NCBI GenBank assembly: GCA_964016885.1
Contig: OZ024743.1
Location: 70,184,001-70,248,000, forward strand
DNA from: Eledone cirrhosa
Taxonomy: Eukaryota
DNA: 64,000 nt
Direction of reading: 5' to 3'
The notes below the pieces were generated by a model. That model did no database searches. It was not told where the DNA came from and worked only from the letters and a program-made list of their open reading frames with translations. The position numbers and the translations under genes are program-made. Numbering within the stretch: position 1 is the stretch's first letter; each line of letters starts with the position of its first letter. Below, piece by piece: positions 21,770-56,076 of the stretch.

Positions 21770-22355
21770 ATAATAATTGTTTTTACTTTTGGCACAAGGC
21801 CAGCAATTCACCAGTGCATTACTGGTACTTTATTTTATCGACCCTGTAAGGATGAAAGGCAAAGTCAACCTCGGCGGGATTTGAACTCAGATCATAAAGG
21901 GGCGTAACTCTATGCTACAAAGCATGGCGTACGACCCTCTACCGATACTGCCAATCCACCAGAACATAATAATAATTGTTTCTACTTTTGGCACAAGTCC
22001 ACCAATTACTCAGTGCATTACTGGTACTTTATTTTATCGGCCCCGTAAGGATGAAAGGCAAAGTTAACCTCGGCGGGATTTGAACTCAGAATGGCAAGGG
22101 CCGTAACTATATGCGTCAAAGCATCGAGTCCGACCCTCTACCGATAATTTCTACTATAGGCACAATGCCAGCAAGTTTTGGGATGGGAAAATCGATTAAA
22201 TCGACCCCTCTGCATTTCTGGTGCTTTATTTTATCGACTCCGTAAGGATGAAAGGCAAAGTTAACCTCGGCGGGATTTGAACTCAGGGCGTGATGGGACA
22301 TAATTCTATGCAACAAAGCATATTGTCCGACGCTCTACCGATATTGCCAATCCAA
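21770..22355 (-). mobile_element. Three tandem SINE copies
   Basis: Repeated ggcacaaggccagcaatt...ctggtactttattttatcgacccc...gatttgaactcag...accgatactgccaatcc, with (AAT)n at the copy ends. Confidence 0.92.
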
Positions 22356-22439
22356 TAATAATGAAACAGGGAAATGTTATAACCATCGGCCAGATGCAGT
22401 GACAAAAGGCGAGAATGTGACAATCCTATGAGATTTCCC

Positions 22440-22780
22440 TGTGAACACCGACAGAACGGTGAAGGCCAACAGACTAATAGAGTCGTCAATGACCATAAAA
22501 AGAAAACATGTTTCTTAATTGACATGATCACGCCATCAGATCGTAACAGTTCTTCGAAACAGTTCCGAAAACTCGTAAAGATTTGACAAGTGAAATTGAG
22601 AAAATATGACATCTTAAAGCCTGTACAATACCAGTGATAGTCGGGGAACTTGGAAAGATAAAAAAGGGAAGTGAAATATATTTGAACCAGATACCTGGAA
22701 AGCCGTCACTGCAAGGAATACAGAAAATAGAGCTGACTAGCACTGCCCATGCCCTGAGAAGGGCATTATCAATTTCAATA
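22440..22780 (+). mobile_element. 3' fragment of an R4/NeSL-like RLE non-LTR element
   Basis: KTCFLIDMITPSDRN and TIPVIVGELGKIKKGSEIYLNQIPGKPSLQGIQKIELTSTAHALRRALS match the typical RLE C-terminus. Confidence 0.8.
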
Positions 22781-22949
22781 ACTTGCAAAGATATTTATTC
22801 TTGTTTATGCCCATGCGACATCATTTGTAAAACAATTGATTGTAAAATAAGTGAATTATCAAATTTTGCGCCGAGTGTTAGGTTCACATTTGGTATGATA
22901 TGGGAAAGAAGCATAATTCAAAGGATGTATCAAATGATGAATTTTACTT

Positions 22950-23330
22950 TAAGGCTAGCAATTTAGGAGGAGGGAAAGTCGATTAAATTGACCTGAGTGT
23001 GTAACAGGTACTTTATTTCATTCACTCCGTAAAGACGAAAGGTGGGATTTGAACACAGAACTCTATGCCATGAGGCATGGTGTCCGAAGCTCTACCTATA
23101 TTGCTAATCTTCCGCCTTTTACAAGCTTCAAATAATAATAATTGTTTCTACTTTTGGCACAAAGCCAACAATTACCCAGTGCATTACAGGTATTTTATTT
23201 TATCGACCCCGTAAGGGTGAAAGGCAAAGTTAACCTTGGCGGGATTTGAACTCAGACGATAAAGGACTGTAACTATATGCTGCAAAACATGGTGTCCGAC
23301 TCTCTACCGATACTGCCAATCCACCGCCCT
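22950..23330 (-). mobile_element. Two SINE copies
   Basis: Same core, box and tail motifs as the other copies. Confidence 0.9.
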
Positions 23331-23574
23331 TCAAATAATAATAATAATAATAATAAAACAAACTGCTTGGTAGACAGCGTTACCTTCTCTACCCTGGTTT
23401 AGTGCAAACTTTAAAAAGTCAATCAGAGACTGAACCCGTTCAGACGTGTCCAATATGGTAATGATAGTAGGGGAAAAAGGCAAAAGCAACAACGGAAGTA
23501 ACAGCAGCAGTAGTAACAATAACAATAAGATATATACAACATGGGGAACATAAACAAAAACATTAAGAATAATG

Positions 23575-26095
23575 GTGCGGGTATAGGGCACTGCGTTGGT
23601 GTCCAGCGGAGAATATCTCACCTCAATTTTAAGGAGCGGGGGCCTTTGTAGTTATTTAAAACACCCTCTAGAGACGGTGTCTCGATAAAGAAATAGTGAT
23701 GATTGTGGCACTTCAACAACACTAACCTAATTTGAGTGAAATGGAAAATCAATTGAATAAAAATAACAGCGCGAATGATGCTAAAGGCAGCAATGTTGAA
23801 GATATTTCCCCTGGCAGGTGTCCCGTGGGTGAGCAACATGGGCGCGGTCGCTACCCAACTACTGCCAGAACAGGATGGTCGAAAACTAAATATAACTGTA
23901 ATGGAGTGATATTCTTTTGAGAAGGCCGGTCAATGATGAGGGAAAGCTTGTAAGAGGTTACAGAAGACGAATGCACAAAATATGGAAGGTGAGACAAGAA
24001 TTGAAAGTGACAGAACAAAGAATATCTGGTCAGATGCAGATAATTCGAAAAAACTTTGGCTAATAGAAGTTGAGTTGGAAGAAATAAAAGAAAAAGAGCT
24101 ATATCTGTAGGGGTCACAGCTGAGGACGAAGATCGTGAGATGTGTGAAATTGTGACGAATGAGATGAACGAGAGGGAGCTTGAAAGATAGCCGATGATCA
24201 GTATCCCAGAGAAGAATAAAAGGATTAAAAAGAAAAAGAGAGATGATTTATGAGATGATCAGCATCACGAAATAGGATTATCTGAACCAAATACAGGGAC
24301 TGAAGAACCTGAAGAAATTGATGGAAAATAAAACAAATGTGAAGAAAATTCATAGTGATATAAAAATAGGAATAGTAGGTATGCAAGAGAAAATAAATTT
24401 CCAACTAGAAAGATCCTGTATCTAATGGGGTCCAGGGCTTTTGGTTGAAGAGGATGATGTAAATAGGGATATAGAGAGTTTGATGGTCAGCTGGAAAGAG
24501 TTAATTTCCTGTGGGGAACAGTTAAACTCTGTTAACATTCAGGGAAACAGTTTATCACTCCTCTTATTTGTTATTTGCATGAAGCCCCTGGCCCAAGTCC
24601 TGAGAAAAGTGAAACTGGGATATGTGCTAGATGGTATTAAAATCAACCATCTATTATTTAGAGGCGATTTAAAGTTATTTGCGAAAAACGAGGATGAATA
24701 TGATAGCATAACATCTACTGTAAACCTGATTAGTCAGGATATTTGGATGGAGTTTGAGATGAAAAAAATGTGATTTTTTAACCCTGAAATGTGGAAAACT
24801 AACAAAGAATAGTCGAATAGAGCTTGCAAAGTGCCAGATTATTAAATAAGTGGGAACAGAATGATACAGGTATTTTGGAGTCTTTGAATTGGATAAGATC
24901 AAAGAGAAAGAAATGAAAGGGATATTAAAAGAAGATTACCTCAGTCTGCAAAGACTTGTAATATTGTCTAAATTGAATGTAATGAATAAGATCAAAACAA
25001 GGAATACGTGGGTTGTGTCTCGCATGTTCTATGAGGTAGAAGTTATTAAATGGCGGAGAGATGAATTGGAAAGAATTGATAGGAACACTAAGAAATTGTT
25101 AACAGCGTGTAAAGAACCTCTCCCAAAGAGTGATGTCGCAAGAATTTATGTTAGCAGAAAGAAAGGAGGTAGAGGACTAATACGTTGTGTAAATTGTGTC
25201 AAAAGCGAAGAAACAACTTAGCATGGTACCTTTAAAATGTAAGGGGTAGCATCATATCAAAAGTAAGAGACATCGACACACTGAAATCTTCTGATGGAGT
25301 AGCAACTAATGAATGTAAAGCGAGGGTGAAAAACACTTGAAAAGGAAAGGAAGGATAAACTTCTTCATGGACAGTACAGAAGGGATGAGGTAGTAAAGGT
25401 ACTGGTCATGGCTTACAAATGACGATCTGAAAGGATGCACCGAAATTGTGGTTGCAGCATCAAGGATCAGGCTCTTGGAAATAACTACATTAAACATCAT
25501 ATTGATAAAATCATAGCATTATCATTCTGTAGAATGTGTGGAACAAAAGGATACATGGTAAGCCATAGAACCATAGGGTAATGTGTTAAGTTGGCACGAC
25601 AAGAGTACGAAAGACGACATGATAATGTTACCAGATATCTAAGACATATAGGTTTGTCAGGGCAACTAAATGGTATCAGCAGAGATCAGAAAGAGTGTTA
25701 GAGAATGAGGAATTTAGGTTTTTTTCGGACTTCACAATTCAATATTATAGAATGATTGAAACAAGAAGGCCAGATATTGTAATTGTGAGAAAGAAGAAAA
25801 AGGAGACCAAAATTATCGATATATCTGAAGAGTACGAAAAGATGGAGAAGTTTGAGTCACTGAAGGAAGAGGTTGGAAAGTTGTGGCGGATTGCAAGGAT
25901 GATCAGAGCATTGGGATACATCTTGAGGACTGTGTAAATAGAGTCAGAATTGATGCAAGGTTACAGCGCTTGCAGTAGGCAACACTTCTTTAAGGAAGGA
26001 GAGAATGAAGTGGGGTTCCTTTAACAACTGCTCCCTAACTGAAATATCCTGATCGTTTAAAATCTAAGTGACTAAGATTTACAAAAATGAAACAT
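23575..26095 (+). mobile_element. R4/Dong-like non-LTR retrotransposon, internally deleted and decayed
   Basis: IQGNSLSLLLFVICM, INHLLFRGDLKLFAK, RIYVSRKKGGRGL, CRMCG, EYERRHDNV, RRPDIVIV; ends in taatactaataa. Confidence 0.85.
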
Positions 26096-26099
26096 AATA

Positions 26100-26846
26100 C
26101 TAATAATTGTTTCTATTTTTGGCACAAGGACAGCAATTATCCTAGTGCATTACTGGTACTTTCTTTTATCGACCCTGTAAGGATGAAAGGCAAAGTTAAA
26201 CAATACTAATAATAATAAATGTTTCTACTTTTTGGCAGAAGGCCAGCAATTTGAAGTGAAGGGGAAAGTCGACTAAATCGAACCTAGTGCGTTACTGGTG
26301 CTGTATTTTATCGATCCCGTAAGGATGACAAGCAAAGATAACCTCGGCGGGGTTTGAACTCAGTATATAAAAGGGCCTAGACAATGCCACAAAGCATTTC
26401 ACCCAATTCTTTAACGATTTTGCCAATCAACCGCCATAATAATGGTAATAATAATAATTGTTTCTACTTTTGGCACAAGGCCAGCAAATTACCCAGTACA
26501 TTACTGGTACTTTATTTTATCGACCCCGTAAGGATGAGAGGCAAAGTTAACCTCGGCGGGATTTGAACTAAGATCGTATAGGGACGTAAGTCTTTGCGTC
26601 AAAACATGGCATCCGACCTTCTACTGATACTGCTTTCTTATATAGGCACAAGGCCAGCAATTTTGGGAGCAGAGAACGTCGATTAAATCGAACCCAGTGC
26701 GTGACTGGTACATTATTTTATCGCCCCCGTAAGGATGAAAGGCAAAGTTAACCTCGGTAGGATTTGAACTCAAATCGTAAAGGGCCGTATATATTTACTT
26801 CAAAGCATGGCGTCCGATCTTCCACCGATACTGCCAATCCACCGCT
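26100..26846 (-). mobile_element. Four tandem SINE copies (first is partial)
   Basis: Same SINE motifs, mostly with (AAT)n spacers. Confidence 0.92.
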
Positions 26847-26852
26847 TTTAAT

Positions 26853-26898
<46 letters not shown>

Positions 26899-27140
26899 TT
26901 TTCTTTATTAACCACAAGGGTTTACATAAAGTAGACATTAAGGACAGTACAGGACAATACAGGACGGTACAAATGGGCATTTCTGCGTGTAAAAAAACAG
27001 AGGATGTAATAAAATAACAAAGAAAAATTCCCCAATAGGAGGGAGACTTCCGAGGGACATTTGTGGAGAAAGCCCATTAAAAGACCACAGTGACCCTGAC
27101 CACCATGGCAAGTGCCCTCTCCCAGTTTTGCACCCTTAAT

Positions 27141-30100
27141 TTACAAACACATACTCAGAGAAGGCCCATTCATTCGGGCCATACTTGCTTCTCTCACCCA
27201 TCTTTCAACAAAATGCTGGGAAGAGAGCACTTCCCTCTCTACCCTGATTTTCCTTTTCAAATGAAATTTGAAAAAGTTAATCAGGGCATCACCGAAGAGG
27301 TAAGTGCTCGTCTTCAGCCCTTTCAAACGTGTCCACCATACTATCTCTTTCGCCATGGCCACCAGACAGATAAAAACTGCCTGCTCTTCACGGCTAAATG
27401 AAGAGGGCGGGGCAATCCTCACGATGGACTCAGCTGATAGCTGGATCCGTCCTACACGTGACAGCAGGTGTTCGACATAAACCCACAAGTCAGCAATGCT
27501 CGGACACTGGACGAGTGCGTGCAGGACGGTTTCGTCGCCCTGTGCGCATCTCGGACATGCCCGGCTGACGGCACCTCCATGCCTGTAGAGTTTATCCCGA
27601 ACTGGCAAAGCTCCCCGGTAGCGCTGCCAGGCCAGGGATTTCTGGAAGTTGTCCATAGGCCCCGGCCCGAAAGTCCTTCCGAAGAGATTGGCTAGTTGAT
27701 TTTCGTCGACGCCTAGAGTTTCTCCAAGTACGTCGTCGCTCTTCCCCTCCACTAATCCTCTATAGAACGCCGAGGTGGAGTTTCCACCGATCAAATTTAC
27801 CGATTGGTCGAGGGCTGTGAGCGCCTGAAGATATTCCAGTCTCCAACCGCTCCCTCTCAGTCTTCGCTTGACCCAAGACTGCAACTCCGTCAAGGAGACG
27901 AGCTGGGGAAAGACGCCTCTAGCAAACGGCGACCACGCCTGATCACCGTCGAGGAAGAGGTGGAGATGTCGTAGCCTGAGCCCGTGTATGCGCATCATCA
28001 GCCACGGCATGCCCAGCACTCCACGTAGTGGGTTTTGACAGCAGCTGGACCGCCTGACCATCGGAACGCTTCCCTTCCACAAAAAGCGAAAGAGCAAACG
28101 CTCCAGCGCAGTCATGCGGGGCTTAGGACAAAGTACGACGGTCAGTCGGTAATAGATGACGGACGTGATTTACGCGTTAGCCACCTCCGCTCGACCTTTG
28201 AGGGAGAGCTTCCTCTCCGCCCATTTCTGGGTGAGAGAACCCACCCTGCTCTTCACCTCGTCCCAGTTCTTGTCCGCCTGGAGGTCCGGACCGAACCAGA
28301 CCCCTAGCAATTTAACCGGTCCGTCCGTCCAGCGCCCGACGACGCTGTTGGACGGCATGGACCTGCCTCTCCAGGTGCCGAGCTGCAGGCCCACTGACTT
28401 TTCCTGGTTGATCATTGCTCCTGTCACCGCTTCGTATTCTCTTAGTGTAGTGCCGATCGCCTCGATGTGTTTGGCATTAGACACCACTACGGTGACATCG
28501 TCCGCATATGCTGACACGGATCTTCCGCATCCTAGTTCGCGCGGGATTCCCCTCAACGTCTCCAGTTTGTGCAGTAATGGCTCGAGAGTCAATACGTACA
28601 AGAGGGACGAGAGGGGACATCTCTGGCGGACCGAGCGCATGATGTTGAACAGTTCCGAAAGGTGACCGTTCACTCTCACCACAGAGCTGATGTCGCTGTG
28701 CATGGCAGCGTTTCAGCCTCTGAGTTATGGGCCTGAAATTATCTGTTATACCCCTTTTTGGGATCCTTTCTCAGTAGCGCCACCGCTCCTCGGCTTACAG
28801 AGCTGGAAATTCTCCCGTTCTGTTGCCAGTTGCAGTAGACGTCCGCCAAGAGGCCTCCGAACAAGTCTGGCATCTGTACGTAAAGTTCATAGGGCAGACC
28901 ATCCAAACCAGGCGATTTACCCCTTGTGCAGCTAGTCTTTGCCTCCCGTACTTCAGCGGCTGTTATCGGCTTTTCGCAACACTCCGCCTCAGTGGCCAAG
29001 AGCCGCAGCAGTCCGTCGAGGTAGACACTAAAGTCCATCCCTCGATCTGGCCCGCCGCTGCTCCCGAACACCTGAGCGAAGTGTCGCTGAAAAGCTTCAC
29101 ATATTTGCCCGGGATCGAGTAGCCTGCGTGCGTCGTGGTCCACCAAAGACCGGATCTTGACTTTGTTGCCACGACGCTCCCCCGCCACTCGGGCCCATTG
29201 AACAGCTTTCGTCCCCTCGTGTATGAGAGCACGCAACCTAGCTCTGACAACGCAGTCTTCGTACTTTGCATTGAAGAATTGCTCAAGGGCTAATTTCGCC
29301 GCAAGTACGTCGGTCGCGATGCCTTTGCTAAGCGCCTCGTCTAATTTTCTAACTAGTTCTCCCTCTGCTCTATTTTTCTCTACTGCTAAAGCCTTACTAA
29401 ACCTAATAGACTCCATTCTAATCGCCCTTTTCAGAGCAAAATACCACTTGTTGTTGACGATGGCCCCCGTCAACGCCCGCTTAACTAGTTCGCTAATCCG
29501 GTCTCTGTAGGCCTTGCGCGCTGGTAAGGACACGTTTAGCTTCCAGTAGCCGAGTCCTTGTCTATGAAGCCTATCTAAGTCAACCACACAGATCATGAAT
29601 TTGTGGTCCGTGTAGCTGACTATCTTGAATTGTGGACAGCCTATGCTAGACCTATCTATTTCCCTACAAAATACTGTATCTAGGTATGATCTGGATGACC
29701 CGATACGGTTTGTCCAAATACACATTGGCACATTCGGAAAATCCTATCGGCATCTGTCAGACAGTTCAAAACGCCGGAGCAGGTTGGTGAGCTCTTGCAC
29801 CCTCCTCCCCTATCCGCTAATCCCACACAGTCCCAGCCTGCATCTAAGATCCCGTTCCAGTCGCCCACTAGCACTAAAAAGCGGGACGTTCCAAGAAAGG
29901 TCTCCAGACGCCGGAAGAAATCAGGCCGCCCTGCTCCTGTCGGGGCATAGACGGCCACTAGCCTGAAAGCTTGCCCGTCTCCGCTGGTCACGTCCAGCAC
30001 CACCAACTTACCTTCTGGGTCCAGGAAGATGTCCCGTATAGCGAGATCCAAACCTCACCGAAAAAGCACAGCAACTCCTCCCCCCGATCCAGGACGGCTG

Positions 30101-30282
30101 GGAGATGCGTACACATCGTAGCCGCCGAAGAACGGTGCGAAGGCTCGTGCTTCGGAGATTCTGGTCTCGCTGATGGCCACTACATCTATGTCTAGTGACC
30201 TGAGGTCGTTGAGCAGGTGGCCCTGCTTCCATGACGACCCCAAGCCACACGCATTTATGCTGCCTATTCTGAGTGAGGACAT
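27141..30282 (-). pseudogene. Tx1-B ORF2 (APE-RT), disrupted
   Basis: ORF pieces 30055-30282, 29680-30051, 28739-29731, 28170-28703, 27141-28115; the RT segment LNTEFKIL..KAFDR is missing at ~28722. Confidence 0.9.
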
Positions 30283-30321
30283 GTTGAAAAGGAGTGGAAA
30301 AGATGGGAAAGACCACTTACC

Positions 30322-32273
30322 TTACTTCTCATAGAGGAAGGATGGTTTCTGCATCCTTTTCACTGCTTGTGGCCTCCTCCGGAAGGATGTCCTTATAAAT
30401 CCTCCTGGAGGGTGCTTGTCAGAAGTCTCCGATGTCTATTGGGAATTTTTGTTTTAGTTCCGTGTACGTTTTCTGTGTGATGCGAGTTGTTTGTATGTGT
30501 GGAGGTGGTGTGAACTTTTGGGGTGTTGTGTAGTCTTTTTCTGTGTTGCTGGTGTTGTGTTGGATGTAGTGTAATAATTGATTGTTGTTCAAATTTAATG
30601 CTGAGTAGTGTGTATCGTTTTGGTTGTTTTGTTTTGTTTGCGTTTGTTGTGGGTTTGTTTCTGTTTCGCTTTTTGGTGACTTTGTGGTGTTGGTGATGGT
30701 GGTGTTGGGGTTAATGATGGTGATGGTGTTGGTGTTTGTGGTGATGGGGTTGGTGATGCTGGTGTGGATAGTGGCGTAGCTGTCTTAACTTTTTTTGTTT
30801 GATAGTTTATTTGTTTCCCCCTGTATTTTGTTTGTGGAGGGGGAAGAAAGTGTATAAATTTCTTTTTAGGCTTCTTTTTCTTTTTTTCTTTTTTCCTGAT
30901 ACAGTTTCCCACTCCTCGTCGTCACAATCTGTCTCCAGTTGCGATAGGTCGGGGAGTGGAAAATCCTCCACAGCCGTTGGTTTTGGTTGTGGCGTGGTGG
31001 ATGGTATAGGCGCTGGTGCTAGTTCTCGCGCGGTGGGTGGTGGTAGTGTTGGTTTTGCTACTGTTGCTGGGTTTGTTGCTGCTACAGTTGTTGCTGCCAT
31101 TTCTGCTGCTGGTGGTTTTGATGGTTGAGTCACTGGGGTGAGTAAGAGAGGTGGTCTCAACTCTTTAGCCTGCGGGCAGAAAGCCTTTTGGTGGGTTCCT
31201 TCACCACAAACGACACACCTAGGCCTTCTTCCTTCGACGATTACGGCGAGGTGGCTACCGACAGTGAGGTCTATTACCTCTGGGATTTCCTCAATGCTCT
31301 TTTGGTCCGCTTGGATCAGGAGCTCCATCCCAGATCCGAACCAGTTCTCCTGTTTTTGTTTTGATAGTTCAAATATTTTGGTGTTGGCCTCGATGCCGGC
31401 GAGGACGGCAGCCATTAGCTAGGAAATTTCGATGGCCGGTGGAACGTGGGTCACCCTGATCTTCACGAGTCTCTGGCCACAATAGCTTGGGACGAGTGTG
31501 AATTCGTCGCTTCTTAATGGGGCCATGGAGTGCTCTCTGGCCTCCTGTGGTGTTCCAAAGAACACGTCCACGGTTCCATATTTCTGCCCACGTCTGATGT
31601 GGGTTTTTATCGCCCACACATGTCCCAAAGCTTTTTGGGACTCGGATGCCCGTTCCACTCGGTGCGATTTTGTGTTAATCGTCCGATAGACATGGTGCAT
31701 AGGCGCCAATGCCCCATTTTATTAGGTGTATGTGTGTGTGTGGGGGGGGGGGGGGTTGACCCTGTACCCATTTTTCTTTACCATTCTCTTGGATTCATTT
31801 AATTCCTCCTGAGTTACCTCGATTGTTTCGCATTTCTTGGCTGCTTTGGCAAACGACACATTTGCGGTGGTGTTGATGCTTTTGTTGTTATTTTCATTGT
31901 TGTTGTTGCTGTTGTTGTTATTGTAATTTATGTTATTGTTATTTTTAGTTTCAGTTGTGGTGGTGGTGGCGTCAGTGGTGTTCGGTGTGGAAGAGTCGAT
32001 TCTTGGTGAATCCATTTCGATGTCACGAGATAACAATTTACTTTTTCCTTTTGTTTCTGTTGTCGCTGTGGTGGTGGTGGGGGTGGCGGCTTTCACACCT
32101 GCAGTTTTTGGTAATGGCGGGAAATGAATGTCTGCATGAGACAAATTTAAATTATTGCTACGGCTTATATTTTTAGTGCTGGCAAACGTAGTAATATTTA
32201 CAATTGTGGTGTTGGTGTGAGGTGTTAGTTTGTGAGGAAGGCTGTCAGCTTGGTGTAGCTGTGAGTCGTCCAT
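30322..32273 (-). pseudogene. Tx1-B ORF1 (CCHC knuckle), frameshifted
   Basis: ORF pieces 31722-32273 (VSFAKAA), 31419-31709, 30807-31415; homologous to the family A ORF1. Confidence 0.8.
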
Positions 32274-32505
32274 GATTTTTTCAAAGAAATTTTTTGTTTG
32301 ATAATTATAAAAGTTTAAATTTTGGGCTCAAGGCCCCAATCTTTTTGAGTGTCCTTTTCCGAAAGCAATATATGTGACCTTATAAACACTTAACAACAAA
32401 AATTTTCCATAAATGGCAATTTGAAACAAATGAAAATAACAAATCTTTGCGGAGCTCACGATAATACGATTTCCTACGTAGGTCACCAATAATAATAATA
32501 ATAAT

Positions 32506-35299: not shown

Positions 35300-35511
35300 A
35301 ATAATAATAATGAGAAGAAGAAGAAGAAGAAGAAGAAGAAGAAGAAGAAGAAGAAGAAGAAGAAGAAGAAGAAGAAGAAGAAGAAGAAGAAGAAGAAGAA
35401 ATGCTTTGACAATTCTATAAATATATAATATGATACAACGTAATATAATATAATATAATATAATATAATATAATATAATATAATATAATATGGTATTATT
35501 ACTATATAATA

Positions 35512-35705
35512 GGGCGGCGGATTGGCAGTATCGGTAGAGGGTCGGACAACATGCTTTCCAGCATAGTTACGTCCCTTTATGATCTGAGTTCAAATCCCGC
35601 CGAGGTTAACTTTGCCTTTCATCCTTACGGGGTCGATAAAATAAAGTACCAGTAATGCACTGGGATAATTGCTGGCCTTGTGCCTAAAGTAGAAACAATT
35701 ATTAC
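35512..35705 (+). mobile_element. Full-length, well-preserved SINE (short subtype, ~190 bp)
   Basis: GGGCGGCGGATTGGCAGTATCGG (A box) ... GAGTTCAAATCC (B box) ... Meta-like core ... GGCCTTGTGCCTAAAGTAGAAACAATTATT. Confidence 0.93.
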
Positions 35706-43716: not shown

Positions 43717-44114
43717 AGAAGAAGAAGAAGAAGCAGAAGAAGAAGAAGAAGAAGAAGAAGAAAGAAGAGGAGGGGGAGGAGAAGAAGAAGAAGAAAGGAA
43801 AAGAATGACAATGGTCAGGAAGACGATGATTATGATGATGATAATGATGATGATGATATTTATAATTGCATCATCATCAACATCAACAACAACAACAACA
43901 ACAATAATGATTTAATTTAAAAACAATTCGATAGTTTCAAGGTCAAGTTGAAGAGGGGAGTAGGGTTGTCGGGTCATTACCACCAATAACATCAATACCA
44001 CCAATACCGTCACTATCAGCAGTGTAATCAATATTATCAATATCATTAATATCATCAATATTATCAATATGATCAATATGATCGATATGATCGATATCAT
44101 ATTATTTTTTAAGT

Positions 44115-44300
44115 AGATTGGCAGTATCAGTAGAGGGTCGGACAACATACTTTGAAGCACAGAGTTACCTCCCTTTATAATCTGAGTTCAAATCCCGCCG
44201 AGGTTAACTTTGCCTTTCATCCTTACGGGGTCGATAAAATAAAATACCAGTAATGCACTGGGTGATTGCTGGCCTTGTGCCAAAAGTAGAAATAATTATT
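44115..44300 (+). mobile_element. SINE copy
   Basis: A box, B box, core and tail all present. Confidence 0.92.
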
Positions 44301-45824: not shown

Positions 45825-46510
45825 TAATAATAATTGCTTCTACATTTGGCACAAGGACAGCAATGATCTCAGTGTATTACTGGTACTTTATTTTATCGAC
45901 CCCGTAAGGATAAAAGCAAAGTTAACCTCGATGGGATTTGAACTGAGAATGGCAAGGGCTGTAACTCCATGTGTCAAAGTATGGCGTCCGACCCTCTACC
46001 GATACTGCCAATCCACCGCCCAATAATAATAATAAGTGTTTTTACGTTTAGCACAAGGCCAGCAATGATCCCAGTGTATTACTGGTACTTTATTTATCGA
46101 CCCCGTAAGGATGAAAGGCAAAGTTAACCTTGGCGGGATTTGAACTCAATCCGTAAAGGGACGTAACTGTGCTGTATATAAAATATATAATGCTGTATAT
46201 ATAATATTAATATATATAATACAATCTGAGTTCAAATCCCGCCGAGGTTGACTTTGCCTTTCATCCTTACGGGGTCGATAAAATAAAGTACCAGTAATGC
46301 ACTGGGTCATTGCTCGCCTTGTGCCTAAAAGTAGAAACAATTAATATATATAATATTAATAATAATAATAAAATCCCAGTGTATTACTGGTACTTTATTT
46401 TATCGACCCCTAGAGGATGAAAGACAAAGTTAACGTCGGCGGGTTTTGAACTCAGTCCGTAAAGGGACGTAACCGTGCTGCAAAGCATGGCGTCCGACCC
46501 TCTACCGATA
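45825..46510. mobile_element. Four SINE copies: 45825-46021(-), 46030-46170(-), 46222-46345(+), 46372-46510(-)
   Basis: Same SINE motifs; includes an inverted pair. Confidence 0.9.
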
Positions 46511-46521
46511 ATAATAATATT

Positions 46522-46571
46522 GATTTCATTTATTAGCCACAAGGGCCGACATGTAGGGGACAAAGACAGGG
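46522..46571 (-). mobile_element. ~50-bp isolated 3' terminus of a Tx1 subfamily D element
   Basis: tttcatttattagccacaagggccgacatgtaggggacaaagacaggg matches 47661-47713; short AAT repeats on both sides. Confidence 0.85.
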
Positions 46572-46576
46572 ATAAT

Positions 46577-47347
46577 AATAGGGATGTCCAAGGAGGAAAT
46601 AACATCAAGGAGAAAGAGCAGCCTTCAGGAAAAAATCCCTTCATAGTACCTTCTTTGAGAAAACTGAATTCAGAGATCCACAGACATGGAACTGGTTGAA
46701 AAGAGGAGACCTTAAAAAGGCTACATAAGGAATGTTAATGGCTGCGCAGGAGCAGGCCCTCAAAACGAAGTGGTTGAAACACCATATTTACAGGGAGGAG
46801 GCTAGCCCACTGTGCAGGATCTGTGGAGAGAGAGAGGAGACTGTGGCTCACATTGTATCCGAGTGTAAACACCTAGCCCAGACTCACTATAAGGGCTGGA
46901 GACATGATGTGATGGGCAGGGTGATCCACTGGCACCTATGCAAAGTAAACACAATAGACCTGACCTGGTGGTTGTAGGCAAAGAAAAAAGATCGTGCCTG
47001 ATTGTGGATGTGGCCTGCCTATTCGACACGAGAGTGCAAGAGAAGGAGAGGGAGAAAATTAACCGATACCAGGACTTAAAGTGGGAGGTAAAAAGGATTT
47101 GGAACTGCCATGAAGTGAAAGGCGTACATTGTCATAGGCGCACTAGGTACTATCTCAAAAAGTTTCCAGGGATGGTTAAAGAAAATTGGCCCCTTCACGC
47201 TTTTTGGAACGCTTCAAAAGGCATGCTTGCTGGGAACAGCAAGAACACTCCGATACGTCCTGAATATCTGAGGCTGCAGGTAGTGGCTTGATATTCATTT
47301 CAACAAAATTTCCAGTTAACTAACATCAATGACTGAGACTCAAAGAA
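46577..47347 (+). mobile_element. R4/Dong-like element 3' fragment (CCHC + RLE + 3' UTR)
   Basis: LMAAQEQAL, CRICGEREETVAHIVSECKHLAQTHYKGWRHD, HNRPDLVVV..IVDVAC, EKINRYQDL; ends in (AAT)n. Confidence 0.9.
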
Positions 47348-47354
47348 CAATAAT

Positions 47355-47505
47355 AATAATAATTGTTTCTACTATTGGCACAAGGCCAGTAATTACCCAG
47401 TACATTACTGGTACTTTATTTTATCGACCCCGTAAGGATGAAAGGCAAAGTTAACCTCGGCGGGATTTGAACTCAGAATGAAATGGGCCGTAACTCTATA
47501 CGTCA
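47355..47505 (-). mobile_element. 5'-truncated SINE
   Basis: Tail, core and B box present. Confidence 0.9.
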
Positions 47506-47620: not shown

Positions 47621-47658
<38 letters not shown>

Positions 47659-47659
<1 letters not shown>

Positions 47660-49708
47660 TTTTCATTTATTAGCCACCAGGGCCGACATGTAGGGGACAA
47701 TACAAAGACAGGGACAGTGGGGGTTTACAATAAGGTGGAGTAAAAGTGCACAAAAGTGCACACTAATTTAACAATGAAAATATAAAAATATAAAATAAAC
47801 TATGCATAAATATAACAAAATAAATTCCCCGATAGGGGGTGTACGACCCTGAGGTGCTTCAGGTACCCCACCAGTCCTGAACCACCCTGCGCTTCTAGGG
47901 CACCCAGGGAGAGCACCCTTCTCCTCAAGTTAGCTAGCCTATAGGCGCATGGTCAGAGTAGGCCCATTCACACGAGCCATTCTCGCCACATTCACCCACC
48001 TTTTAGCAAATGTACTGGGGGGCAGCACTTCTCTCTCCACCCTCACCTTCCTTTCCAGGTGAAACTTGAAGAAGTTGATGATGGATTGGCCGAAGAGAAA
48101 AGTGTCTGTCTTTAGTCCTTTCAACCTGGTCCACCATATAATCTCTTTCGCAACTGCCACCAGACAGAGGAAAATTTCCTGCTCTTCCTGACCTAAGGAA
48201 GGCGGTGGATCGATCTTAACTATGGACTCGGCCGATAGCCGGATTCGTTCCACACGCGACAGTAGCTGTTCGACATAACCCAACAAGTCAGCAATGCACG
48301 GACATTGGAACAGTGCATGCAGAACGGTTTCGTCGTTCTGTGCGCATCTTGGGCAGGTCCGTCTGACAGCACTTCCGTGTCTGTAGAGTTTATCCCGAAC
48401 CGGCAGTGCCCCCCGGTAGCACTGCCAAGCGAGGGATTTCTGGAAATTATCCATCGTCCCCGGCTCAAAAGTCCTCCGGTACAGACTGGTCAGTTCGATT
48501 TCGTCGAGGCCCAAAGCTTCTCCGAGTGCGTCATCGCACTTGCCCACCACTAATCCTCTAAAGAACTCGAGAGTGGAAGTTCCACTGATCGCATTGCCCG
48601 CTTGGTAGAGGGCAGTGAGTGCCTGGCAACATTCCAGGTGCCAGTCACCCAGTCTCGGTCTCTTCTTGACCCAGGACTGCAGCTTAGTCAAAGAAATGAG
48701 CTGCGGAAAGGCCCGTCTGATAGACGGCGACCACACCTGTTCACCGTTGAGGCAGAATATCTGGAGATGTCGCAGCCTCAACGCATGTCTGCGCATCGTT
48801 AGCCACGGCATGCCCAGCCCTCCGCGTAGAGGGTGCTGGCAGCAGATGGACCGCCTCACCAACGGAACTTGTCCCCTCCACAAGAATTTGAAGAGGAGCC
48901 GTTCCAGCTTGACGAGGCGCGGATGGGGGCAAGGCACGACGGTCAGGCGGTAGTAGATGACGGACGCGATGTACGAATTCGCCACCTCCGCGCGACCTTT
49001 CAGTGATAGCTTCCTCCCAGCCCATTTTTGGGTGAGACTGTCTACTCTGCTAGTTACCTCGTCACAATTCTTTTCCACCTGGAGGTCTGGTCCGAACCAA
49101 ACCCCGAGCAACTCTACCGGTCCGTCCGTCCAGCGCCCCACGACGCTGTTGGACGGCATGGGCTTGCCTTTCCAGGTTCCGAGCTGCAAGCCCACCGACT
49201 TTTCCGGGTTAAGTTTGGCTGCTGTCAACCTTTCATTTTCCTTCAATAAGGTGCAGACCACGTCGATTTCTGAGGTGTTCGATACCATCACGGTGATATC
49301 GTCAGCATAAGCCGACACCGCCCTTCCACGTCCCGGTTCGAGCGGGATGCCCTGCAACAGCTCCAGCTTCCGCAGTAAAGGCTCGAGAGTCAATACGTAC
49401 AGAAGGGAAGAGAGAGGGCACCCTTGACGGACCGATCGGGAGAGCCGAAATGGTTCCGAGAGGTGGCCATTAACGTTGACCACCGAGCATGTGTCGCTGT
49501 GCATTGCAACGATCCAGCTTCTAAAGACAGGGCCGAAGCCAGCTGCTTTGAGAACAAACTCCAGATACCGATAGTCGACGCTATCGAATGCATTCGATTG
49601 ATCTAAATTGATCAGTGCCCCACCGAAGCCAGGTTTACACCCTACCCTCTCTATGATGTATCGCATGAGGTGGAGATTGTCGTGTATGGATCTGGCCTGG
49701 ATTGCGCA
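47659..49708 (-). mobile_element. Tx1-type LINE, subfamily D, 5'-truncated
   Basis: Uninterrupted 575-aa RT/C-terminal ORF; distinct 3' UTR; AATAAA followed by (ATT)n. Confidence 0.93.
47939..49666 (-). CDS. Open 3' part of Tx1-D ORF2 (RT motifs 3-7 + zinc finger); truncated, not a complete gene
   Basis: LDQSNAFDSVD, SVRQGCPLSSLLY, AYADDI, CPRC..DETVLHALFQC with no stops. Confidence 0.85.
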   Translation of the reverse strand: MRYIIERVGCKPGFGGALINLDQSNAFDSVDYRYLEFVLKAAGFGPVFRSWIVAMHSDTCSVVNVNGHLSEPFRLSRSVRQGCPLSSLLYVLTLEPLLRKLELLQGIPLEPGRGRAVSAYADDITVMVSNTSEIDVVCTLLKENERLTAAKLNPEKSVGLQLGTWKGKPMPSNSVVGRWTDGPVELLGVWFGPDLQVEKNCDEVTSRVDSLTQKWAGRKLSLKGRAEVANSYIASVIYYRLTVVPCPHPRLVKLERLLFKFLWRGQVPLVRRSICCQHPLRGGLGMPWLTMRRHALRLRHLQIFCLNGEQVWSPSIRRAFPQLISLTKLQSWVKKRPRLGDWHLECCQALTALYQAGNAISGTSTLEFFRGLVVGKCDDALGEALGLDEIELTSLYRRTFEPGTMDNFQKSLAWQCYRGALPVRDKLYRHGSAVRRTCPRCAQNDETVLHALFQCPCIADLLGYVEQLLSRVERIRLSAESIVKIDPPPSLGQEEQEIFLCLVAVAKEIIWWTRLKGLKTDTFLFGQSIINFFKFHLERKVRVEREVLPPSTFAKRWVNVARMARVNGPTLTMRL

Positions 49709-52700
49709 AGGGTTTACATAAAGTAGACATTAAGGACAGTGCAGGACAATACAGGACGGTACAAATGGGCATTTCTGCGTGTAAAAAACAAAAACAGAGG
49801 ATGTAACAAAAAAATAACAATGAAAAATTCCCCAATAGGGGGGAGACTTCGGAGGGATATTTGTGGAGAAAGCCCAGTAAAAGGCTACAGTGACCATGAA
49901 CACCAAGGCAAGTGCCCTCTCCCAGTTTTCCACCTTTAATTTACAGATACGTACACAAAGTAGGCCCATTCACTCGGGTCATTTTTGCTTCTCTCACCCA
50001 TCTTTCAACAAAATGCTGGGAAGAGAGCACTTCCCTCTCTACCCTGATTTTCCTTTTCAAATGAAATTTGAAAAAGTTAATCAGGGCATCACCGAAGAGG
50101 TAAGTGCTCGTCTTCAGCCCTTTCAAACGTGTCCACCATACTATCTCTTTCGCCATGGCCACCAGACAGATAAAAACTGCCTGCCCTTCACGGCTAAATG
50201 AAGAGGGCGGGGCAATCCTCACGATGGACTCAGATGATAGCCGGATCCGTCCTACACGCGACAGCAGGTGTTCGGCATAAACCCACAAGTCAGCAATTTT
50301 CGGACACTGGACGAGTGCGTGCAGGACGGTTTCGTCGCCCTGTGCGCATCTCGGACATGCCCGGCTGACGGCAGCTCCATGCCTGTAGAGTTTATCCCGA
50401 ACTGGCAAGGCTCCTCGGTAGCACTGCCAGGCCAGAGATTTCTGGAAGTTGTCCATAGGTCCCGGCCCGAAATTTCTTCCGAAGAGATTTGTTAGTTGAT
50501 TTTCGTCGAAGCCTAGAGTTTCCCCAAGCATGTCGTCGCTCTTCCATACCACTAATCCTCTATAGAACGCCGAGGTGGAGTTTCCACCGATCACATTGCC
50601 CGATTGGTCGAGGGCTGTGAGCGCCTGAAGACATTCCAGTCTCCAGGCGCTCCCTCTCGGTCTTCGCTTGACCCAGGACTGCAGCTCCGTCAAGGAAACG
50701 AGCTGGGGAAATACCTGTCGAGCAAACGGCGACCACACCTGATCACCGTCGAGGAAGAGGTGGAGATGTCGTAGCCTGAGAGCGTGTCTACGCATCATCA
50801 GCCACGGCATGCCCAGCCCTCCACGTAGTGGGTGTTGACAGCAGGTGGACCGCCTGACCATCGGAGCGCGTCCCTTCCACAAAAAGCGAAAGAGCAAACG
50901 CTCCAGCGCAGTCATGCGGGGCTTAGGACAAGGTACGACGGTCAGGCGGTAATAGATGACGGACGCGATGTACGCGTTAGCCACCTCCGCTCGACCTTTC
51001 AGGGATAGCTTCCTCTCCGCCCATTTCTGGGTGAGAGAAGATAACCTGCTCGTCACCTCGTCCGAGTTTTTGTCCGTCTGGAGGTCCGGACCGAAACAGA
51101 CCCCTAGCAATTTAACCGGTCCGTCCGCCCAGCGTCCGACGACGCTGTTGGACGGCATGGACCTGCCTCTCCAGGTGCCGAGCTGCAGGCCCACTGACTT
51201 TTCCTGGTTGATCATTGCTCCTGTCACCGCTTCGTATTCTCTTAGTGTAGTGCCGATCGCCTCGATGTGTTTGGCGTTCGACACCACTATGGTGACATCG
51301 TCCGCATATGCTGACACGGATCTTCCGCATCCTAGTTCGCGCGGGACGCCCCTCAACGTCTCCAGTTTGTGCAGTAATGGCTCGAGAGTCAATACGTACA
51401 AGAGGGACGAGAGGGACATCCTTGGCGGACCGAGCGCATGATGTTGAACGGTTCCGAATGGTGACCGTTCACTCTCACCACAGAGCAGATGTCGCTGTGC
51501 ATGGCAGCGATCCAGCCTCTGAAGACGGGCCCAAAACCAGCCGCCCTCAGGACTTCCGCTAGGTAACGATGGTCGAACCTATCGAAAGCTTTCGACTGAT
51601 CTAAATTGATCAAGGACCCACCTGTGCCAGGTTCCCTAGCTACCCTCTCTACGATGTATCGCATGAGGTGGAAGTTGTCGTGGATGGATCTGTCGGGAAT
51701 GGCGCATGTCTGCGCCTCTCCCAACATACCACCAACGACAAGCGCCAACCTCTTTGCTAGCACCTTGGCCAAAATCTTGAACTCTGTGTTTAGCAGAGTT
51801 ATGGGCCTGAAATTGTCTATGTTATCCCTCTTGTTATGATCCTTTCTCAGCAGTGCCACCGCTTCTCGACTCACAGAGCTGGGAATTCTCCCGTTCTGTT
51901 GCCAGTTGCAGTAGACGGCCGCCAAGGGGCCTCTGAACAAGTCTGGCATCTGTACGTAAAGTTCATAGAGCAGACCATCCAAACCAGGCGATTTACCCAT
52001 TGTGCAGCCAGTCATTGCCTCCCGTACTTCAGCGGCTGTTACCGGCTTTTCGCAACACTCCGCCTCAGTGGCCGAGAGCCGCGGCAGTCCGTCGAGGTAG
52101 ACACTAAAGTCCATCCCTCGACCCGACCCACCGCTGCCCCCGAACAGCTGAGCGAAGTGTCGCTGAAAAGCTTCACACATTTGCCCGGGATCGAGTAGCA
52201 TGCACCCGTCGTGGTCCACGAAAGACCGGATCGTGGCTTTGTTGCCACAACGCGCCTCCGCCACTCGGGCCCATTGAACGGCTTTCGTCCCCTCGTGTCT
52301 GAGAGCACGCACCCTAGCTCTGACAACGCAGCCTTCGTGCTTTGCATTGAAGAATTGGTCAAGGGCCAATTTCGTCGCAAGCACGTCGGTCGCGATGCCT
52401 TTGCTAAGCGCCTCGGCTAATTTTCTAACTAGTTCTCCCTCTGCTCTATTTTTCTCTATTGCTAAAGCCTTACTAAACCTAATGGATTCTATTCTAATCG
52501 CTCTTTTCAGAGCAAACCATCACTTGTTGTTGACGATGGCTCCCGTCAACGCCCGCTTAACTAGTTCGCTAATCCGGTCTGTAGGCCTTGCGCGCTGGTA
52601 AGGACGCGTTTAGCTTCCAGTAGCCGGGTCCTCGTCTATGAAGCCTATCTAAATCAACCACACAGATCACGAATTTGTGGTCCGTGTAGCTGCTATCTTG

Positions 52701-53196
52701 AATTGTGGACAGCCTATGCTAGACCTATCTATTTCCCTACAAAATACTCTATCTAGATATGATCTGGATGACCCTATGCGATTTATCCAAGTCCCCATTG
52801 GCACATTCGGGAAATCCAATCGGTACCTGTCAGACAGTTCAAAACGCCTGAGCAAGTTGGTGAGGCTCTTGCACCCTCCACCCCTATCCGCTAATCCCAC
52901 ACAGTGCCAGCGTGCATCTAAGATCCCGTTCCAGTCGCCCACTAACACTAAAGAGCGGGACGTTCCAAGAAAGGTCCCCAGACGCCGGAAGAAATCAGGC
53001 CGCCCTGCTCCTGTCGGGGCATAGACGGCCACTAGCCTGAAAGCCTGCCCGTCTCCGCTGGTCATGTCCAGCACCACCAACTTACCCTCTGGGTCCAGGA
53101 AGATGGCCCGTATGGCGAGATCAAAAGCTATCCGAAAAAGCACAGCAACTCCTCCCCCGATCCGTGGGAGATGCGTACACATCGTAGCCGCCGAAG
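49707..53196 (-). mobile_element. Tx1 family B-type copy (E): most of ORF2, lacking the last ~17 nt of the 3' end
   Basis: Near-identical to 26915-30130; ORFs 52667-53182, 51389-52384, 49941-51419. Confidence 0.93.
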
Positions 53197-53514
53197 ACGG
53201 TTTCGTCGCCCTGCGTGCATCTCAGACATGCCCGGCTGACGGCAGCTCCATGCCTGTAGAGTTTATTCCGAACTGGCAAACTTCTCGGTAACACTGCCAG
53301 GCTAGGGATTTCTTGAAGTTGTCCATAGGCCCCGGCCCGAAAGTTCTTCCGAAGAGATTGGCTAGTTGATTTTCGTCGACGCCTAGAGTTTTCCCAAGTA
53401 CGTCGTCGCTCTTCCCCTCCACTAATCCTCTATAGAACGCCGATGTGGAGTTTCCACCGATCACATTGCCCGATTGGTCGAGGGCTGTGAGCGCCTGAAG
53501 ATATTCCAGTCTCC
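53197..53514 (-). mobile_element. Internal Tx1-B fragment (F) fused to the 5' end of E
   Basis: Matches 27527-27844 (FYRGLVEGKSDDVLG...AWQCYR); ends at (AAT)n. Confidence 0.9.
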
Positions 53515-53544
53515 TATAATAATAATAATAATAATAATATATTT

Positions 53545-53990
53545 TTAAGAACTACAAAGGCAAGATAACAAAGCCTGGGAGTAGTGGGAATAGTATGTGT
53601 TAGGGTAGTGTCACTTCTAAAAGGAATTCAAGACCATATCTTTATTGACTGCCCCTTCTTAAAAAGTAGGAAATATATTCAAAGACATGAGCAAGTAAAT
53701 AACTGTATCCACTGGGCAATATGCCGACACTTTAAGATCAAACGTGAAAGCAACATTCATAAACATACAGCAAAATCTATAATTGATAATGACAACAAAA
53801 ATACCTTGGGACATGCTTCTACACTTCAAGTAAAAGATCAAAAGAAAATTAACTGGAGAAACATAACGAGAAAGATTAAATAAAAAATAAAACAAAGCTT
53901 GATATTCCAAAACACAACTTTATCCGTTATTAGCAAAATATTGCTGAGATGCAAGAAAAAGATACTGTCCAAGGACAAGTAAGTCTAGGT
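53545..53990 (+). mobile_element. Highly decayed R4/NeSL-like fragment
   Basis: QDHIFIDCPFLKSRKYIQRHEQVNNCIHWAICRHF resembles the CCHC/RHD region. Confidence 0.65.
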
Positions 53991-54479
53991 TAAAATATGG
54001 AAGCTGTGAATGAAGGAATAAATGAATGAAAGAAAATGTACGTATCTATAATCGATATAATTAGTTTATTAGGTGAGACATAAATAAATACTAGGAATAA
54101 AAATTATAATACATATATATCGATTATTAACAACATGAACAGGTCTACAAGGCATAGTGTGTGTTCTACAAAGGCTCTTCTCTATAGAATACAATAGCAA
54201 AACTGAGAAAACACACACTATACAGAGAACACTTATAATTCAATAGAACAATTGACACAATTCATATTCCACACAAGAGAGAGATAAATATGATAACAAA
54301 ACGTGTACAACATACATTCTATAAAGGCCTCATGACTACAATAGCTCAGTTTACACAACACACTCTATAGAAGCTCCATTGATAATATAATGATACCACT
54401 GACAAATTATATATTGTGCAGGGGAAAATTTAAATATAACTTATATAGAACATTCTCTATGATGTGATATTCTCCACAT

Positions 54480-55235
54480 AACTCTCCCTGCGAATACACA
54501 TTCACAACACCACTATACAATCTACATAACACACTCATACACAAGGACATTCACAATACAATAACACATTCTTCACTACATAATAACACAATGTACACAA
54601 CGCACTCATTACACAGTGACATTGACAGCGCAATAACACATTTTACACAACACAACCACACAACTTACAAAACACACTCACTACCTACACTGACATTCAC
54701 AACACCGTAATACCACTAACATAATAACACTACTCACTACATAGGAACATTCACAACACAACCAAACAACTCTACACAGTGACATTTACAGCACAAATGA
54801 CATAACAACACAATTCTACACAACATACTACACATGAACATTTACAGCATAATAAACACATCTTTACACAACATACTAACTACACAGCGACATTCACCAT
54901 ACAACTACACAACACACTTTCTACACATGTATATTCACAACACAACCACACAGCGTACACGACATATTCACTACTAGGTGACATAACTACACATCTGACA
55001 TAACTACACAACTCTACACAACACACTTACGACATAGGGACATTTAAGATACTATAACACAACTTACACAACACACTGACGACACAGGATTATTGAATAT
55101 ACAACACAACTTTACAGAACATTCTTACTACACAATGACAGTCACAACACAACTGACATAACTACACAACTTTACACAACACACTTACTAATAAGCGAAA
55201 TTCACAACACAACTGACACAACTTTCTCAACACAA
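54480..55235. repeat. Degenerate A/C-rich minisatellite (~45-50 bp unit)
   Basis: Recurring acacaacacact(c/t)actacacagtgacattcacaacaca variants. Confidence 0.75.
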
Positions 55236-55434
55236 CGACTGAAGACCTTCCATTACAAATGTACATAAGATATTTTTCGTAATGGAAGACACTTATAAAT
55301 CATTTGATCTCACCGAACGGCACGTTATCAAATACATTACAGCCAGTATTGAGTACTAGCTTTACCGTTGCTTAGCAAATACGACCAGGTTGTATTCATC
55401 AGACTGATGGATATGAATTAAGAAAGAACATTGA

Positions 55435-56076
55435 TTAATGATTTCTAATTTGGGCACAAGACAATCAATTTAGGGAAGGAGGGCAAGTCGATTATATCAA
55501 TCCTATTGTTTTACTGATACTTTATTTTATCGATCCAACAATGATGGAAAGTAAAGTTGACCTCGGTAGGAGTTGAACCCAGAGGGTAGAGTCAGAACAG
55601 ATACAGCTAAACATTTGTACCACGCTCTATCAACCCTACCAACCCATAACTAAGAACACTAAATATTCAATGTTTCCTAAACAAGGCCAAACACTGTATT
55701 TGACTAGAATTTTTTTATCGACTCCGCAAGGATGACATCCAATGTTGACCATGGTTGGATTTGAACTCAGAACGTAAAGAAATATAGCTAAATGCGGTAA
55801 ATCATTGTCTCCGAGTGCTCTTCCGATTCTACCAAGACACTGCCACGAAAACAGAATAATGATTTTTGCTATAGGCACAAGGCCAGCAATTTTGGGGGTA
55901 GAGGAAAGTCGATTAAATCGACCCAGTGCATTACAGGTGCTTTATTTTATCGACCCCCTAAGGATGAAAGGCAAAGCTAACCTCAGTGGGATTTGAACTC
56001 AGATCATAAAAGGGGCGTAACGATGCTACACAGCATAGTGTCCGATGCTCTACCGATACTGCCAATCCATCGCCCT
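55435..56076 (-). mobile_element. Three SINE copies (two older and degenerate, one well preserved long subtype)
   Basis: SINE motifs including the GTCGATTAAATCGAC palindrome. Confidence 0.88.

Follow-up and report, generated by a model that had tools for sequence, protein, structure and literature searches.

A high-copy octopod SINE and microsatellite-inserting Tx1 LINEs with matching 3' tails: a probable partnership in Eledone cirrhosa

Several pairs of short and long interspersed elements (SINEs and LINEs) that share a 3' tail have been described, and what is said of them here refers to those portions of the cited papers that were accessible to us. In the L2 clade, the stringent pairs UnaL2/UnaSINE and ZfL2-1/2 use a 3' stem-loop in a loop-specific manner, as was shown by assay (PMC4176376). 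LINEs of the L1 group are known to depart from this pattern of tail sharing: a 2013 review of 58 SINEs gives three SINEs with L1 tails, the L1-clade pairs being maize ZmSINE2/3 with LINE1-1_ZM and Chlamydomonas SINEX-3 with L1-1_CR, and its Table 1, as far as it was available, holds no Tx1 partner and no cephalopod (PMC3747384). A Tx1 enzyme, that of Tx1-Mar, has been proposed for crocodilian SINEU on the grounds of target preference and concurrent ages; the same paper describes Tx1 families specific for microsatellites, namely Kibi for (TC)n, Koshi for (TTC)n and crocodilian families for (TTCC)n/(TTTC)n (Kojima 2015, PMC4494074). The partners named in a bivalve survey are CR1, CR1-Zenon, L2 and Nimb (PMC11481361), and two papers on octopus repeats report L1-Tx1 and SINE expansions, in the accessible text without pairing them (PMC13282606, PMC8967140). 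The word Tx1 was not found in the accessible part of Kojima 2018, and searches of the literature, confined to the main text of papers, found no tail-sharing SINE-Tx1 pair. Here we analyse a window, that is, a stretch of 64,000 nucleotides of the octopod Eledone cirrhosa (contig OZ024743.1, positions 70,184,001 to 70,248,000), in which a SINE and several Tx1-type LINEs end in similar tails next to ATT repeats.

A preliminary description of this DNA had proposed that the SINE is a partner of the Tx1 LINEs, and our results speak for this idea: it is probable that Tx1 mobilises the SINE. Beyond the short tail match itself, the partnership is supported by a predicted hairpin that lies in register in both elements and carries compensatory changes, by target-site duplications that start with ATTAT, by overlapping divergence, and by the lack of a better tail among the LINEs sampled.

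The four tail strings quoted in the preliminary description are all exact on the minus strand, the SINE tail at 43444-43473, 43287-43316 and 26453-26482, its variant at 55437-55460, the Tx1-C tail at 32500-32529 and the Tx1-B tail at 26892-26920. We compared the last 25 nt of each element, anchored at the junction and without gaps, using three natural SINE tails and 5000 shuffles. The match to Tx1-C was 16, 17 and 17 of 25 (p=0.0002, the floor of 5000 shuffles) and that to Tx1-B was 14, 14 and 16 of 25 (shuffle p<=0.002), so the resemblance is above chance. Tx1-D reached only 10/25 ungapped, owing to a 1-nt insertion, and gave gapped p values of 0.001-0.012. Among 3,898 unrelated 25-mers preceding an ATTAT, two scored at least 16 against Tx1-C, five had the loop described below in register and none had the full stem, although this null leans low because windows resembling either tail had been left out of it. 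No other LINE clade offered a better tail among the families sampled, their ends scoring 2-11 of 25 as against 16-17: 2-3 for CR1-b, 4-7 for CR1-a, 3-4 for RTE-a, 8-11 for RTE-b and 6-11 for Dong-like elements together with one adjacent end. Of 281 SINE-type tails in the 1.36 Mb examined, 40 stood without a SINE body; 34 of these were Tx1 tails, six were short or degenerate remnants, and none belonged to another recognised LINE, many of the loci having been collected with Tx1 queries. Chimeric ends that switch from one element to the other at the shared loop occur in both directions, with 2 and 3 exact genome matches and none for the controls; they fit template switching and microhomology-guided recombination equally well. 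We also considered a dedicated Tx1 family bearing the SINE's own stem, for which one pattern gave 20 matches, but these were single variants of known families or chimeras and the candidate was rejected.

The common core of the tails is a sequence of the form stem-CTNGT-stem, predicted to form a stem of 3-4 bp, with 16 nt from loop to junction (17 in Tx1-D). In the window it reads TGGC-CTTGT-GCCA in the SINE (43462-43474, minus strand, where it is absent from the minimum-free-energy fold of that copy), AACC-CTTGT-GGTT in Tx1-B (26910-26922, minus) and AGCC-CTTGT-GGCC in Tx1-C (32518-32530, minus). The stems are thus TGGC/GCCA in the SINE, AACC/GGTT in B and AGCC/GGCC in C, and further GGCC/GGCY in D, CGCT/AGCG in A (the family state, which 7 of the 8 close copies show) and, in another A-type family, TGCC/GGCA. 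For nine tail types, seven from Tx1 and both from the SINE, RNAalifold returned a 3-bp stem in which no cell is left unpaired (27 of 27) and every pair shows a double change. The 4-bp version had a covariation of 0.535, which none of 500 shuffles reached, slid controls attaining at most 0.097; covariation in a smaller alignment of six rows likewise supports the stem. In 250-nt Tx1 contexts the hairpin had a pairing probability of 0.5-0.84. When only the final 30 nt of the short SINE were folded the value was 0.8, and full-length SINEs folded with a limited pairing span gave 0.24-0.41. Among metagenome relatives of 25-44% identity, a narrow scan of 22 loci (of 80) for stem-loops immediately upstream of AATAAA found none with the CTNGT loop. 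The hairpin may be restricted to certain lineages.

The insertion signature was studied in a random sample of SINE copies, taken from 79 ten-kb regions at round coordinates; 92 copies had an intact end, and after three at locus edges were dropped 89 remained. Exact ATTAT follows directly in 62 of these 89, against a background of 0.28% of positions, and 44 of the 89 have a duplication of at least 10 bp (mean 2.8% and maximum 8.0% under shuffled pairing). As the upstream copy of the duplication starts with ATTAT in 31 of the 44, the motif was already there in the target, and the "ATT tail" of the SINE is target DNA, the start of the target-site duplication. In a wider set, duplications were found at 54 of 110 SINE ends (five next to another tail were dropped), mostly 10-19 bp long, and a pyrimidine at -1 occurred in 90% of 49 SINE sites as compared with 59% of control ATTAT sites. 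The site can therefore be written Y|ATTAT, and every unit of (ATT)n satisfies it. Tx1 duplications, too, start at ATTAT. Outside repeats they measure 15 bp (L068, a 29-nt fragment), 17 bp (L199) and 18 bp (L249), the full-length copies L240-L243 have duplication calls of 17-19 bp inside ATT repeats, and a duplication of at least 10 bp was seen at only 40 of 103 visible Tx1 5' junctions, many of them in pure repeat. The earlier statement that both elements end in (ATT)n with the same polarity holds for the polarity, ATT following the sense strand in both, but not for the SINE tract, since at least four ATT units follow only 2 of the 89 random copies and the duplications run into unique sequence. 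At least four units follow 107 of 161 Tx1 ends (66%) and 14 of 27 tails among 30 Tx1 loci chosen by protein domain only, and at least three stand in 43 of 103 Tx1 5' flanks. The SINE is thus ATTAT-directed with a modest lean towards tracts, and the microsatellite specialist is the Tx1 LINE.

The two activities overlap in time. Measured from the commonest letters of each group with CpG excluded, median divergence is 4.9% for the short SINE type (n=70, range 0-11.5%) and 11.3% for the long type (n=22), and it is 4.9% for Tx1-B (n=6), 5.4% for Tx1-C (n=8) and 4.8% for Tx1-D (n=16), the Tx1 groups being small, chosen for an intact domain and with subfamily structure inside. The short SINE and the ATT-type Tx1 families therefore share medians near 5%. 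Reciprocal nesting within element bodies was not used as evidence, since only one SINE-in-Tx1 row and two Tx1-in-SINE rows were found, none of them clean.

The SINE is short (186 bp in the short type, about 213 bp in the long type), non-coding and of high copy number, with 5'-truncated copies and target-site duplications; the exact 24-nt end of the short type has 150,743 matches in the 3.0-Gb genome and its reversed control none. It contains A-box-like and B-box-like motifs, judged against the usual consensus of these boxes. As to a tRNA origin, ARAGORN found no tRNA in the window and Rfam gave no match on one SINE copy. The younger short type (42426-42611) lacks about 28 bp that the older long type (55861-56073) has just before the tail, and in short-type copies such as 43444-43490 an upstream segment competes with the tail hairpin in folding. 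Contigs of sequencing runs X15, X17, X19 and X3 cover the SINE tail. The Tx1-D tail is well covered only by run X3, with three short contigs upstream of the hairpin in X17, one in X13 and none in X15, gaps that are not informative; X3 may derive from a source near that of the window. Abundant tRNA-derived SINEs of octopus, named OK, OR1 and OR2, were reportedly described by Ohshima and Okada in 1994. They resemble the present SINE in being abundant octopus elements, and ours may belong to this set or be related to it. OR1 is named in the accessible part of PMC4824008.

The assignment of the LINEs to the Tx1 clade rests on domain layout, an ORF1 zinc knuckle, target preference and a quick tree built without named references. 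The copies in the window hold pieces of an apurinic/apyrimidinic (APE)-type endonuclease, a reverse transcriptase (RT) and a zf-RVT domain. One intact full-length element (L240) encodes an ORF1 of 668 aa and an ORF2 of 1139 aa between (ATT)6 and (ATT)5 flanks. Its ORF2 matches Exo_endo_phos, RVT_1 and zf-RVT above cut-off, a set common to L1 at large, and has human L1 ORF2p as its best solved relative (E 1.7e-56); its ORF1 has no Pfam match. A CCHC knuckle of the form C-X2-C-X4-H-X4-C is present in the translation of 30807-31418 (minus strand), the ORF1 of Tx1-B, and a separate ORF1 with a gag-like CCHC knuckle is a feature of the Tx1 clade. The nearest named homologue of the RT region comes from Argonauta hians (69% identity). 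In the quick RT tree, which contains no named L1/Tx1 reference, an octopod Tx1 clade (support 99, including four unnamed proteins) is sister to a clade with U2-flanked Keno-like loci (SH-aLRT 88). Tails of families B, C and D run into ATT tracts and those of A-type families into ATCT-type repeats; the grouping of Tx1-A with the ATT-type family D (97) suggests a target switch within the radiation. Sister families with the same tail hairpin, whose ends are not (ATT)n but (ATCT)n or ATATATC, were seen at 14592-18261 and at L255-L273, L061, L194, L200, L202 and L203. Full-length D-type copies (L240-L245, L250, L251, L253) have two different 5' ends and stand in head-to-tail arrays with other Tx1 elements, often with 6-7 ATT units between them, about one duplication length. 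On metagenome contigs, Tx1-like LINEs of L280, L283 and L286 have U2 snRNA sequence downstream, in a Keno-like manner, and L274, L281 and L283 have an internal U2-like stretch upstream of ORF2.

The explanation that we favour, with somewhat less assurance than the involvement of Tx1 as such, is that the ORF2 protein of ATT-type Tx1 copies the SINE to new sites by recognising the predicted 3-4 bp stem with its CUNGU loop 16 nt from the junction. We infer that such recognition would be stringent. In this model, which follows the standard scheme of target-primed reverse transcription, the SINE RNA would be made by RNA polymerase III from the A- and B-box-like motifs and its hairpin would be bound by ORF2. 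The APE endonuclease would then nick the bottom strand at 5'-ATAAT/R-3' (Y|ATTAT on the top strand), the freed ATAAT-3'OH would pair with AUUAU at the RNA end and prime reverse transcription, and a second nick 10-20 bp away would produce the duplication. A Tx1 mRNA with several AUU units behind AAUAAA would be primed best in (ATT)n tracts, whereas a SINE RNA without AAUAAA and with only about five pairing bases could use any ATTAT. The differing number of AUU units could in this way give, from one enzyme, both a microsatellite-bound LINE and a dispersed SINE.

Some of our observations weigh against this explanation, and the weak folding of the hairpin leaves room for another one. In full-length SINE folds (36 short and 10 long copies) the mean pairing probability of the hairpin is 0.06, and minimum-free-energy folds hold it in fragments of B, C, D and the long SINE, but not in the short SINE or Tx1-A. 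The compensatory changes, moreover, are single events in related rows, and the structure was proposed from the same sequences. It might be that Tx1 mobilises the SINE without needing a hairpin, the tail having been left over when a Tx1 3' end was captured, and a relaxed ORF2 acting on any RNA that ends in AUUAU. The case of SINEU would fit here, as it is reported to be mobilised by Tx1 while no LINE with the 3' terminus of SINEU-1 was found, according to the accessible part of PMC4494074. We consider this unlikely, though still the strongest of the alternatives, as seven tail types from Tx1 and the two from the SINE all keep loop, spacing and pairing although their stem letters differ, the changes coming in pairs. 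Both elements also have 5'-truncated copies, about 30 nt long, that hold only the hairpin tail (L068, L137); these point the same way, although they show only where copying starts. Other observations leave some room for an enzyme outside Tx1, namely CR1-b, Dong/R4 or an RTE element, be it RTE-b or one outside our sample, with ATTAT arising from RNA-DNA pairing of the SINE end and not from a Tx1 endonuclease. At SINE targets T is mildly enriched at positions -8 and -7 (p=0.007 and 0.03, before correction for the 20 positions compared), and TTT occurs in 35% as against 22% (p=0.026), which faintly resembles an RTE signature, since RTE-driven SINEs are described as shifting the duplication start with the 3' repeat and as having a T stretch near -10 (PMC6007223, accessible part). 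CR1-b also ends in (ATT)n of the same polarity, and our sample, which is no catalogue of the LINE families, holds no more than about six ends from outside Tx1. Still, CR1-b has a different hairpin besides its poor tail score and showed no duplication in 15 copies whose 5' junction could be seen, although some of these junctions may be alignment breaks; RTE-a has 20 genome matches, mostly followed by AT repeats; RTE-b-type ends are followed by GAT-type repeats in 26 of 26 cases (low complexity and a tandem array stood in the way of a clean check of their duplications); and the Dong-like tract has the opposite polarity, (AAT)n on the sense strand. Tail scores, repeats and polarity thus disfavour CR1-a, CR1-b, RTE-a, RTE-b and Dong-like elements as partners, and another clade as the source of the enzyme seems to us rather improbable.

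The hairpin-reading Tx1 enzyme meets further difficulties. Of 103 Tx1 5' junctions, 63 have no duplication of at least 10 bp, some of them being alignment breaks. The SINE fits ATCT-type Tx1 equally well (16-17/25), so that only the target singles out the ATT families. The flanks, in turn, differ strongly, (ATT)4 following 11,766 of 150,743 exact SINE ends genome-wide (7.8%, an upper bound because the numerator pattern was one base shorter) and 107 of 161 Tx1 ends. The same figure bears on the earlier notion of a microsatellite-targeted SINE with an (ATT)n tail like that of the LINE. It is well above the 0.012% of random positions and about twice what a preference for ATTAT alone predicts, and SINEs and Tx1 elements are often adjacent in tracts. 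However, about 92% of SINE ends lie outside (ATT)4 tracts, as do 87 of the 89 random copies with their duplications running into unique sequence, so this notion is largely refuted and in our view very improbable. Least credible of all is that two short ends, both rich in A, resemble each other by chance. The comparison covers no more than 25 nt, 8-9 of them mismatched, and Tx1-D agrees poorly without gaps; on the other hand, the shuffles for Tx1-B and C and the rarity of loop and stem among the control 25-mers argue against chance, and the evidence from target and age is independent of the tail match. On balance, a Tx1 enzyme that reads the predicted hairpin remains the explanation we prefer.

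The window, in which retroelements lie nested around ATT/AAT tracts, is unusually ATT-rich; unless stated otherwise, the elements listed here lie on the minus strand. At 21778-22354 there are three tandem SINE copies (two short-type and one long-type), followed by a short-type copy between ATT runs (23143-23330). Four tandem SINE copies (26108-26845) stand directly 3' of the Tx1-B ATT tract, an (ATT)14 at 26856-26897. Tx1-B itself (26898-32487) is near full length but broken, its ORF2 pieces holding RT and zf-RVT, and (ATT)6 joins it to the 5'-truncated Tx1-C (32506-35300). A full-length short-type SINE on the plus strand (35511-35697) has a 16-bp target-site duplication starting ATTATT and no ATT tract. 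The reference copy of 186 bp (42426-42611), also full length and short-type, has a B-box-like motif at 78-86 and an 18-bp duplication starting ATTATT. Three 5'-truncated SINE copies lie in tandem at 43293-43716, a short-type copy whose duplication starts ATTATT at 44113-44292 (plus strand), and a cluster of four copies on both strands at 45835-46510. A 51-bp 5'-truncated Tx1-D tail fragment (46522-46572) has ATT runs on either side and comes directly before a truncated SINE; another truncated SINE is followed by (ATT)5 (47364-47495). A 5'-truncated Tx1-D (47659-49708) is followed by (ATT)13 and has the loop variant CTGGT; it is joined directly, at 49700-49715, to a second B-type Tx1 (49707-53201) whose 3' end lies inside the tail loop. 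Three older long-type SINE copies occupy 55440-56076, the one at 55861-56076 being full length with A-box-like (10-21) and B-box-like (76-84) motifs. Outside the span first described (21770-56076), a Tx1-A LINE (14592-18261) has (ATCT)n after its tail and the stem CGCT-CTCGT-AGCG.

Other repeats were seen along the way. Decayed LINEs at 23355-26090 and about 46600-47348, both on the plus strand, end in (AAT)n on the sense strand; we take them to be R4/Dong-like from their C-terminal motifs. Tx1 copies often stand tail-to-tail with such elements in one tract, so that two clades occupy one microsatellite in opposite polarity. A 5'-truncated CR1-type LINE at 60752-62503 (minus strand) ends in CAAAGTT-type repeats, and a further CR1-type family (L160-L184; 1,048 first-look candidates) has its own GTGC/GCAC hairpin and an (ATT)4+ tail, with no target-site duplication detected. 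The RTE family of L354-L373 is low-copy (20 matches), young and mostly inserted in (AT)n repeats. Abundant elements at L032, L092 and L127, some of them short and tandem, have an RTE-b-type tail with (GAT)n and are possibly a second SINE, partnered by RTE. A long tandem array rich in ACC (39553-42162), with a period of 126 bp and 869 open codons on the plus strand, is probably a simple-repeat satellite.

How far these results reach depends on how much of the proposed mechanism is accepted. In the broadest reading, for and against which we see about equal weight, this SINE would be the first whose recognition tail derives from Tx1: a radiation of Tx1 in octopods would have kept stringent recognition of a CUNGU-loop hairpin across ATT/ATCT target switches, a SINE present in over 150,000 copies would hijack it, and the enzyme would be microsatellite-specific for its own RNA and motif-general for the SINE. 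If one enzyme has these two specificities, then the 3' end of the RNA sets the site-specificity of insertion. If a Tx1 LINE does share its tail with a SINE partner, this would reveal stringent recognition of RNA in an animal branch of Tx1, which matters for the question of whether the L1 group was stringent from the start; the pairing, if true, would also identify what drove a major burst of SINEs in octopods. The intact element L240 makes it possible to test which RNA feature is read by Tx1 ORF2, and whether microsatellite specificity comes from the length of RNA-DNA pairing or from the endonuclease alone.

Compared with the systems described at the outset, again within the accessible portions of the papers, the tail match found here is shorter and less identical than those of the bivalve pairs, which extend over 35-61 bp at 72-95% (PMC11481361). 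The maize and Chlamydomonas partners are plant and algal L1s that end in polyA, unlike the present Tx1 (PMC3747384). Like the L2-clade pairs, ours would have a small 3' stem-loop ahead of the terminal repeat, with a conserved loop and an exchangeable stem, but the present hairpin is shorter (3-4 bp), only predicted, and placed on an L1/Tx1-type ORF2 (PMC4176376). Like the Kibi, Koshi and crocodilian Tx1 families, the LINEs described here insert in simple repeats and form tandem arrays, yet they target (ATT)n, with sister families in (ATCT)n, and those families have no SINE partner described in the accessible text (PMC4494074). SINEU with Tx1-Mar is similar in that a Tx1 enzyme is proposed for a SINE from shared target and ages; it differs in its U1/U2 heads, polyA tail and Mariner target, and in that SINEU-1 has no tail-sharing LINE (PMC4494074). 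The present SINE, for its part, has Pol III-like boxes in its head, the last 25 nt in common with Tx1, and the target Y|ATTAT. A SINE mobilised by Tx1 is thus already known from SINEU, without a shared tail, and what the present case would add is a Tx1 pair in which the tail is shared.

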